Virus record (IMG/VR): IMGVR_UViG_3300049172_000015
Location: 1 to 56,968 of that record
Origin: a virus
Lineage: Duplodnaviria > Caudoviricetes
DNA length: 56,968 bases
Reading direction: 5' to 3' (one strand)
The notes below the pieces were generated by a model. It did not search any database. It was not told where the DNA came from and saw nothing but the letters and a program-made list of their open reading frames with translations. The stretch's first letter is position 1. Each line of letters starts with the position of its first letter. Below are positions 10 to 135 of this stretch, one piece after another. The position numbers were made by a program, and so were the translations under genes.

Positions 10-135
10 TTCCTTGGTAGCTCAACGGTAGAGCGCCCCTACCCGGGTCTTGTAACGGGGAGGTTGCGGGTTCAAATCCCGTCCAGGGAACCATTTAGCT
101 CTTCGCGCCAATCACAGAACGTGAACGGACACCTT
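10..135 (+). repeat. Terminal direct overlap (126 bp, identical to 56843-56968), indicating a circular assembly
   Basis: TTCCTTGGTAGC...GGACACCTT is present at both window ends; the few bases before it differ (actggccgt vs actggccggc). Confidence 0.95.
11..93 (+). tRNA. Atypical tRNA with a 25-nt anticodon arm (+8 nt); identity ambiguous (Thr-UGU or Lys-CUU triplets in an Asn-like acceptor). Second copy at 56844-56926 lies in the overlap
   Basis: Acceptor TCCTTGG/CCAGGGA + ACCA; D arm GCTC-AACGGTA-GAGC; T arm GCGGG-TTCAAAT-CCCGT; anticodon arm CCCCTACCCGGGTCTTGTAACGGGG. Confidence 0.85.

Follow-up and report, generated by a model that had tools for sequence, protein, structure and literature searches.

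A tRNA-like gene with a long anticodon arm in an uncultured phage genome, read as a hairpin-less form of a Streptomyces-phage tRNA look-alike family that includes phiC31

Background

tRNA look-alikes without anticodons have been known in phages since T4 and T5, and their function has stayed unexplained. Here we describe such a gene in the IMG/VR virus record IMGVR_UViG_3300049172_000015 (Duplodnaviria; Caudoviricetes), whose 56,968 bp (G+C about 59 %) are referred to as the window, that is, the whole stretch of DNA that was analysed. The gene, at positions 11-93 of the plus strand, is best read on the comparisons given below as a hairpin-less form of a family of tRNA look-alikes of Streptomyces phages, phiC31 among them, and we consider it rather probable that it is a conserved non-decoding tRNA mimic without a working anticodon arm.

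Several described systems offer points of comparison. YrlA-type bacterial Y RNAs are non-decoding and imitate the tRNA elbow and acceptor, with the RNA ends located in a stem that takes the place of the anticodon arm. The +1 frameshift suppressor tRNAs carry 8-nt anticodon loops, and the dimerisation initiation site (DIS) of HIV-1 is a kissing loop with a 6-nt palindrome held between purines. The record of phage T5 (NC_005859) lists RNA1 and RNA2 as 'tRNA-like stable RNA with unknown functions' and RNA3 as 'putative tRNA-like RNA'. A 2026 preprint on bacterial tRNA mimics treats other families, an mBio paper on tRNA-dependent lysogeny is concerned with decoding tRNAs and tyrosine integrases, and a review of non-canonical tRNAs makes no mention of phages. 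The words 'insertion' and 'decoy' do not occur in an eLife paper on phage tRNAs and host tRNases. The literature searched, which did not include the 1999 phiC31 genome paper (PMC148434), contains no account of a tRNA-like RNA in phiC31 or related phages, and no description of RNA dimerisation as a mode of action for tRNA mimics. The family seems to have gone unremarked so far.

Results

Architecture of the gene

The gene and its parts, assigned from the Rfam alignment and the sequence, are as follows.

11-93, plus strand: tRNA-like RNA gene with an encoded CCA (Rfam RF00005; 73.7 bits with the family model R1, described below)
11-17 / 83-89, plus strand: acceptor stem, UCCUUGG / CCAGGGA, with one U.G pair
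20-34, plus strand: D arm, GCUC / AACGGUA / GAGC (stem 20-23 / 31-34)
36-60, plus strand: long anticodon arm, 25 nt
36-39 / 57-60, plus strand: closing stem of the arm, CCCC / GGGG (Rfam)
40-56, plus strand: 17-nt loop, UACCCGGGUCUUGUAAC (sequence)
42-47, plus strand: self-complementary hexamer CCCGGG, within the 8-nt palindrome ACCCGGGU = ACCCGGGT over 41-48
61-65, plus strand: variable loop, AGGUU
66-82, plus strand: T arm, GCGGG / UUCAAAU / CCCGU
90 and 91-93, plus strand: discriminator A, then the encoded CCA (sequence)

The Rfam tRNA model RF00005 covers positions 11-90 end to end (model positions 1-71, 52.1 bits, E 2.4e-08), with 17 nt inside a 4-bp anticodon stem where the model expects 9. 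The intact tRNA body, encoded CCA and 25-nt arm at 36-60 described in the first-pass annotation are thereby confirmed. Acceptor stem, D arm, T arm and discriminator are those of a canonical tRNA, however, the canonical 5-bp anticodon stem with a 7-nt loop carrying U33 and a purine at position 37 is lacking. A resemblance of the acceptor to tRNA-Asn, also claimed at that stage, did not hold up, as the tRNA-Asn genes of related phages begin with UGAC or UGGC and carry G73; A73 is found in all 15 tabulated members of the family, just four of which encode the CCA.

ARAGORN with default settings does not call the gene. At a lowered threshold it offers a tRNA-Thr(GGU), which was rejected for its broken D stem and for an inner UAC/GUA helix that fails at the loci L040, L043 and L113. 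Two further folds were also set aside: the minimum-energy fold, which runs the arm into the variable loop in a manner that the variable loops of other members cannot follow, and a GGUAG/CUACC hairpin that is broken in L014, L045 and L040. The fold energy of the whole molecule is ordinary (z = -0.85).

Relationship to the phiC31-type tRNA look-alikes

A blastn search with the gene against isolated phages detected an unannotated stretch in Streptomyces phage Heather (Rfam tRNA 51.5 bits, with a 24-nt insert); the same comparison with window positions 1-500 gave no match. The Heather copy led to positions 31424-31510 of phiC31 (NC_001978.3), unannotated between gp13 and gp14, and to further members in phiBT1, Vash, Samora, Euratis, Sebastisaurus, RemusLoopin, Lilbooboo, AbbeyMikolon and Nesbitt. 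Copies in isolated phages are either unannotated, as in Nesbitt, or labelled tRNA-Gly (Lilbooboo) or 'tRNA-OTHER' (AbbeyMikolon).

The phiC31-type arm is 31-34 nt long and is built of a 4-bp stem, A-A, a palindromic hexamer, A or G, a hairpin of 3-4 bp, (U)GCAC and the returning stem. Closing stems occur as CCCC/GGGG, CCGC/GCGG, CCAC/GUGG and UCCC/GGGA, inner hairpins as CCC/GGG, CGC/GCG, CCCC/GGGG and CCU/AGG, and the hairpin caps are GCAA, GAAA, GUAA, UUCG or UCAA. Across nine such sequences 98.8 % of the cells are paired and 11 pairs show two-sided changes, which none of 500 shuffles matched. These arms are rods (stem, internal loop and capped hairpin) devoid of an anticodon loop, and the RNAs that carry them therefore cannot decode.

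A covariance model, R1, was made from nine phiC31-type sequences, L018 among them. It scores the window gene at 73.7 bits and the members that share its arm at 65.8-79.1 bits, with ordinary tRNAs of the same 19 sources at no more than 54.1 bits. Positions 36-47 of the window (CCCC / UA / CCCGGG) correspond, column for column, to the closing stem, W-A and palindrome of the phiC31 type. Downstream of them the R1 alignment places 7 nt (UCUUGUA) where the 14-nt inner hairpin stands, only the final AC being shared, and the GNRA- or UUCG-capped hairpin with its GCAC is missing; the gene is called a hairpin-less variant on account of this replacement. L018 bridges the two groups, since it combines the 5' half of the window arm (G-CCCC-UA-CCCGGG) with a phiC31-type hairpin. 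A third arm type occurs at the genomic slot of the window gene in phage Ibantik (annotated as tRNA-Gly, 93 nt) and L036. In it, a GGGGCCCC run is combined with a GCCGC hairpin, whose cap is GGAA in one of the two and UUCG in the other. At 74 nt the phiBT1 copy could pass for a normal tRNA, yet its arm measures 19 nt and position '33' is A. Among 21 members of the family all seven acceptor pairs change on both sides with 100 % of the cells paired, and two T-stem pairs co-vary.

When R1 was run over 151 Streptomyces genomes (including the unpublished G131, used in this count alone), two matches only stood above the ordinary tRNAs, which reached at most 60.7 bits. One, at 92.2 bits, lies in a prophage with the phiC31 order gp12-gp13-RNA-gp14-gp15; the other, at 76.9 bits, is L113, a contig from a Streptomyces draft genome on which terminase and integrase genes are also present. 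No further member came to light when another 150 genomes of the host's family were sampled. As a separate observation, AbbeyMikolon carries a second 'tRNA-OTHER' (L299:830-909; AbbeyMikolon 41010-41089; R1 56.4 bits) whose arm is apparently sealed by a GUAA tetraloop.

One arm in many tRNA bodies

The window arm, in lengths of 24-26 nt, is shared by tRNA bodies with seven different acceptor stems, that of the window included. The other six are listed here.

UCGCGCG: L045
UCGCACG: L217
UGGUACG: L044
GCUUCCG: L113
UUCUCAG: L018
GCGUUGG: L040-42, L047, L043

Most of these members came from a pattern search in which the 5' half of the arm was fixed and the acceptor, the T arm and the 3' half of the loop were free to vary. 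The arm of L045 is identical to that of the window at 25/25 positions, with TerL proteins just 37 % identical over 219 residues. In an alignment of ten sequences all 200 stem cells are paired, and two-sided changes are seen in six of the seven acceptor pairs and in two T-stem pairs. None of 500 shuffles did as well, and slid controls pair at 31-51 %. Such perfect covariation across different bodies argues that the cloverleaf has been selected as RNA; the D arm is invariant across the family and thus gives no evidence of this kind.

Counted from the 3' side, the last seven loop bases of the same-arm members read Y/G-U-NNN-A-C with invariant U and A, where NNN is GUA in six members, the window among them, AUA in two and GAU in one. 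The 17-mer GAGCGCCCCTACCCGGG has 207 matches in genome and metagenome contigs, nearly all of them in coding DNA (an ERPYPG motif) and three of them tRNA-like. When the three bases before the hexamer were freed, 16 new matches were obtained, none tRNA-like, and viral and genome contigs gave no match to exact patterns tied to the window acceptor stem. Two same-arm members, L040:5664-5747 and L043:1702-1782, have G3.U70, A73 and an encoded CCA, which we take to be the alanine identity set, and they might on that account be charged with alanine whatever their arm.

The palindromic hexamer

A census of the hexamer was taken in the 21-sequence model alignment. It follows the closing stem, on the 5' side of the arm, in 20 of the 21 sequences, as CCCGGG (15), UCCGGA (3), CCUAGG (1) and CCAUGG (1, with a one-column shift), and each of the 20 is a perfect palindrome. 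The four forms are linked by three symmetric double changes and zero one-sided ones, whereas palindromes make up just 9 of the 135 two-substitution neighbours of CCCGGG. In the aligned members, the self-complementarity of the hexamer has thus been maintained. As a 6-nt palindrome cannot pair within one strand, what is kept would be the pairing of two copies or the fit to a two-fold-symmetric partner, and the palindrome is suggestive of an RNA dimer or of a binder with two-fold symmetry. For the hexamer and its flanks, the computed self-duplex energies range from -10 to -15 kcal/mol. Both phiBT1 (GACGUU) and L019 (ACCUCGGGGU) contain a stretch whose self-complementarity depends on G.U pairs, a weak hint in favour of RNA over DNA. 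A search of the phage genome for antisense targets gave 13 near-matches against 10.2 expected, which is no excess.

Conservation at the terminase slot

Relatives were also collected independently of the tRNA-like gene, through 27 loci anchored on TerL, nine of which have a TerL at least 86 % identical and include the interval between the HNH endonuclease and terminase genes. Six of these nine carry at this slot an Rfam-detected tRNA-like gene whose arm is not of 17 nt: L014 and L015 (80 nt each), L018 (88 nt), L019 (86 nt), L036 (92 nt) and L016 (74 nt, with an 18-nt arm). The closest relative by TerL (L012, 98 % amino acid identity) has tRNA-Met alone and no tRNA-like gene, the gene being therefore dispensable. 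Two other elements were observed at the same slot, a class-II tRNA-Tyr(GUA)-like gene with a poor D arm (L013:4582-4667), called by ARAGORN and not by Rfam, and a tRNA-like element called by neither (L017:4712-4790). An inverted repeat (GACAAGGAAGCGG...CCTGTCCTTGTC; L005:1395-1436, L008:3061-3103, L017:4651-4712) is conserved 5' of the odd tRNA-like gene in Ibantik, L015/L008 and L017 and is absent from the window.

Between L014/L015 and the window, divergence at four-fold sites amounts to 0.27-0.48 in the TerL, portal, capsid and HNH genes (about 40 %), and the gene flanks are unalignable. The tRNA-like gene itself differs at 4 of 80 positions and its arm at 0-1 of 25, for which the binomial probability is about 5e-5 (at most one change in 25 at p = 0.4). 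Two of the changes fall in stems and turn U.G into U-A and G.U into G-C. A relative from run X2 shows the same contrast, with 126/126 positions identical over 56843-56968 against 48 differences and 7 gaps over 55900-56646, both spacers being replaced. The long arm is no assembly artefact, since two independent contigs (L014 and L015) have it too, as do contigs from three other runs. At the level of sequence comparison, gene and cloverleaf are under purifying selection.

These results support the earlier suggestion that so well kept a body speaks of function rather than decay, the gene being far more conserved than neutral sites and its stems co-varying. The comparison with relatives that had been proposed came out in the same sense: the long arm is conserved with stem covariation, and a scan of IMG/VR for the body with a normal arm returned two known long-arm copies only and no normal-arm copy.

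Genome ends and neighbouring genes

The following neighbours are referred to in the text.

56844-56926, plus strand: the same tRNA-like gene, met again through the end overlap, with no second genomic copy (Rfam hits 11-90 and 56844-56923 are one gene)
56190-56651, plus strand: HNH endonuclease gene, which opens the HNH - tRNA - terminase block (Pfam PF01844, E 1e-11)
56725-56799, plus strand: ordinary tRNA-Met(CAU), 44 nt upstream of the tRNA-like gene (ARAGORN; Rfam 64.2 bits)
2313-3755: TerL gene, with portal and capsid genes after the terminase

Positions 1-135 of the window duplicate 56833-56968, exactly so over 126 nt. Over bases 1-9 the match to 56833-56842 is broken by one substitution and one additional base, and because of this mismatch the record is listed as linear in IMG/VR. 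An independently assembled contig of 56,863 nt from run X1, possibly the source sample, contains 55900-56968 in its middle with zero differences. None of the runs in which the stretch was found is an RNA run. From the end overlap, and from a window end that is internal in this contig, we infer a circular unit of about 56,833 bp or a terminally redundant genome, in either case with a single copy of the gene.

The gene order is HNH, tRNA-Met(CAU), a 44-nt spacer, the tRNA-like gene, a small open reading frame (ORF), terminase, portal and capsid. By amino acid identity of TerL the nearest named phages are the Streptomyces phages Success (80 %), Ibantik (64 %) and Ponzi (61 %), and the order HNH - tRNA - terminase is common to all three. 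About 360 nt (94-450), without a match in Rfam, separate the tRNA-like gene from the small ORF; this stretch is missing from L012 and L014, in which the tRNA-like gene or tRNA-Met adjoins the ORF leader almost directly. The ORF itself (483-575, MATEEEMRSPDWCWTHNCHKSQCP...), rich in Cys and His, lies 3' of the tRNA block and is kept in L012, L013 and Ibantik (gp60). The large terminase of Ponzi (L006:4288-5900) is annotated as two ORFs, with the ATPase and nuclease domains, about 115 nt apart.

Further away, a large serine recombinase gene (33659-35155; Pfam Resolvase and Recombinase domains) makes it probable that the phage is temperate. The motif GGTCTCGAATCAAC occurs about nine times within 27364-53555, a region of minus-strand genes (for instance at 27379-27392, 42262-42275 and 53537-53550), and this repeat, which falls into families D2 and D3, could represent a promoter or some other regulatory box.

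Discussion

A non-decoding tRNA mimic

If the gene is a non-decoding tRNA mimic, host tRNA processing enzymes would cut the RNA out of the HNH-tRNA-terminase transcript, and the mature molecule would end in CCA and adopt the L shape of a tRNA. It would not decode and would instead occupy or mislead a tRNA-binding factor of the host or the phage, possibly as a homodimer joined through the palindromic hexamer. The decoy considered in the first-pass annotation is compatible with such a mimic. A more specific proposal, which we put forward tentatively, is that the mimics of Streptomyces phages, phiC31's included, pair through this DIS-like hexamer and that the resulting two-headed 'double tRNA' would bind or block a dimeric host factor that handles tRNA, such as a synthetase or a defence nuclease.

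Several points weigh against the mimic reading or its evidence. The invariance of the arm's 5' half is partly a matter of sample selection, since the search pattern fixed it and L014, L015 and L018 alone were found independently. R1 was trained with L018, which carries this very 5' half, and the window score is somewhat favoured as a result. High identity across distant phages could also stem from recent transfer; whether constraint or transfer accounts for it, the gene is not decaying. The phiBT1 copy lacks the hexamer, a palindrome within a single arm is not significant given the base composition (560 of 5000 shuffles for the window gene), and a DNA-binding protein of two-fold symmetry would select a palindrome equally well. 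Finally, when a 7-nt frame is anchored at the 3' side of the loop, the same-arm members all have U where U33 would stand and A where A37 would, so that a residual anticodon loop, with GUA in the window, is possible.

That last point also supports a working decoder, in which a loop on an arm with a 7-10-nt bulge, or the enlarged loop as such, would read Tyr (GUA), Thr (UGU) or a quadruplet as a +1 suppressor. In the bulge-plus-loop fold L044 has a canonical 7-nt loop (CUUGUAA), the sibling phage L013 has its tRNA-Tyr(GUA)-like gene in the same slot, and an 8-nt loop does occur in a natural decoder, yeast mitochondrial tRNA-Thr (PMC7609411). However, in this fold the loop measures 7, 8 or 9 nt among same-arm members, and the would-be anticodon is GAU in one and AUA in the other of L040 and L043 despite their common acceptor and T arms. 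These two also place G3.U70, which we take for an alanine identity pair, beside an Ile-like or Tyr-like triplet. An anticodon loop is absent altogether from the sister arm types, and the gene is missing from the closest relative, L012. As far as the terminase, portal and capsid genes go, the ORFs are intact and a suppressor is not required. We therefore regard a decoder as unlikely. The frameshift-suppressor geometry pointed out earlier is not supported either, as it requires a 7-nt bulge, has a loop of 7-9 nt with varying central bases, and is at odds with L012 and with the loop-less phiC31-type arms; the loop end that keeps U and A may be a relic of an anticodon loop.

The fold could alternatively serve as a processing signal only, recruiting RNase P and RNase Z to the HNH-tRNA-terminase transcript, with no role for the arm itself. 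The gene lies between genes of one strand, where the structural operon begins, and its body is the most tRNA-like part of it, as such a signal would have it. However, this leaves unexplained a 25-nt arm that is identical in phages with terminases just about 37 % identical, and likewise the covariation of the arm stems and of the hexamer; moreover, tRNA-Met already supplies a processing signal 44 nt upstream. On balance this explanation is rather improbable.

More doubtful still is a palindromic arm that acts as a DNA site (attachment site, operator or nuclease target) within a tRNA-like gene. Palindromes suit dimeric DNA binders, and in all four loci of other phage groups that were examined (L042, L045, L044, L113) a large serine integrase gene lies just upstream of the gene. 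The integrases of these four loci, however, are only 20-30 % identical to each other and to that of the window, even where TerL is 94 % identical, and the window integrase (33659-35155) is 22 kb away. A serine-integrase attP site was rejected for these two reasons. A search for a tyrosine integrase was negative, the genome of the L113 host contains no tRNA gene that matches, and the arm stems co-vary in the RNA sense; the dependence on G.U pairs in phiBT1 and L019 also speaks, weakly, against a DNA site. Lastly, a tRNA gene that an 8-nt insertion has recently inactivated and that is now in decay, or a tRNA gene with a micro-intron, is hardly credible: deletion of ACCCGGGU does leave CCCCU / CUUGUAA / CGGGG, a tRNA-Thr(UGU)-like arm with one mismatch, and L013 and L017 do hold varied, partly degenerate tRNA-like elements in the same slot, but the gene shows 4/80 differences against neutral divergence of about 40 %, perfect stem covariation across seven acceptor types, no normal-arm copy in IMG/VR and a short phiBT1 copy with a 19-nt arm and A at '33', while the micro-intron of the first-pass annotation fails because no single excision, of 8-10 nt or otherwise, restores a canonical arm across members, no Rfam intron family matches, and we know of no bacterial pathway that excises an 8-nt segment.

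The non-decoding mimic accordingly stays our preferred reading. The family spans an uncultured soil phage, phiC31 and a dozen isolated Streptomyces phages, and with phiC31 as a member, the question of function can be put to the test in a phage-host pair that is open to genetics. In the co-varying palindrome there is a concrete, mutable feature that points to RNA dimerisation. For annotation practice, tRNA finders mis-call these genes, which should be excluded from counts of decoding capacity.

Comparison with known systems

With canonical elongator tRNAs (RF00005) the window gene shares the acceptor, D, variable and T parts, A73 and CCA; it differs in the anticodon arm, which has 4 bp and a 17-nt loop instead of 5 bp and 7 nt, and its sister members are rod-shaped. 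One possible fold of the window arm has an 8-nt loop like yeast mitochondrial tRNA-Thr(UAG) (PMC7609411); however, this fold needs a 7-nt bulge in the stem, and neither loop length nor 'anticodon' is conserved among the members. The window RNA differs from YrlA-type RNAs in that it ends at the acceptor with CCA, and Rfam reported a tRNA alone for the window. The likeness to the HIV-1 DIS is one of mechanism by analogy only: the phiC31-type motif likewise sets a 6-nt palindrome between A-A and A or G, with symmetric double substitutions only, but it lies in the arm of a tRNA-like RNA of a DNA phage, where dimerisation is a proposal.

The closest counterparts, by annotation alone, are RNA1, RNA2 and RNA3 of T5. 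They are 73-144 nt long, belong to another phage and host lineage, and have no known palindromic hexamer. They too lie in a phage tRNA cluster with HNH genes nearby, and they are tRNA-like without being counted as tRNAs; the window gene, for its part, is tRNA-like, lacks a usable anticodon arm and sits in the tRNA cluster of a phage.

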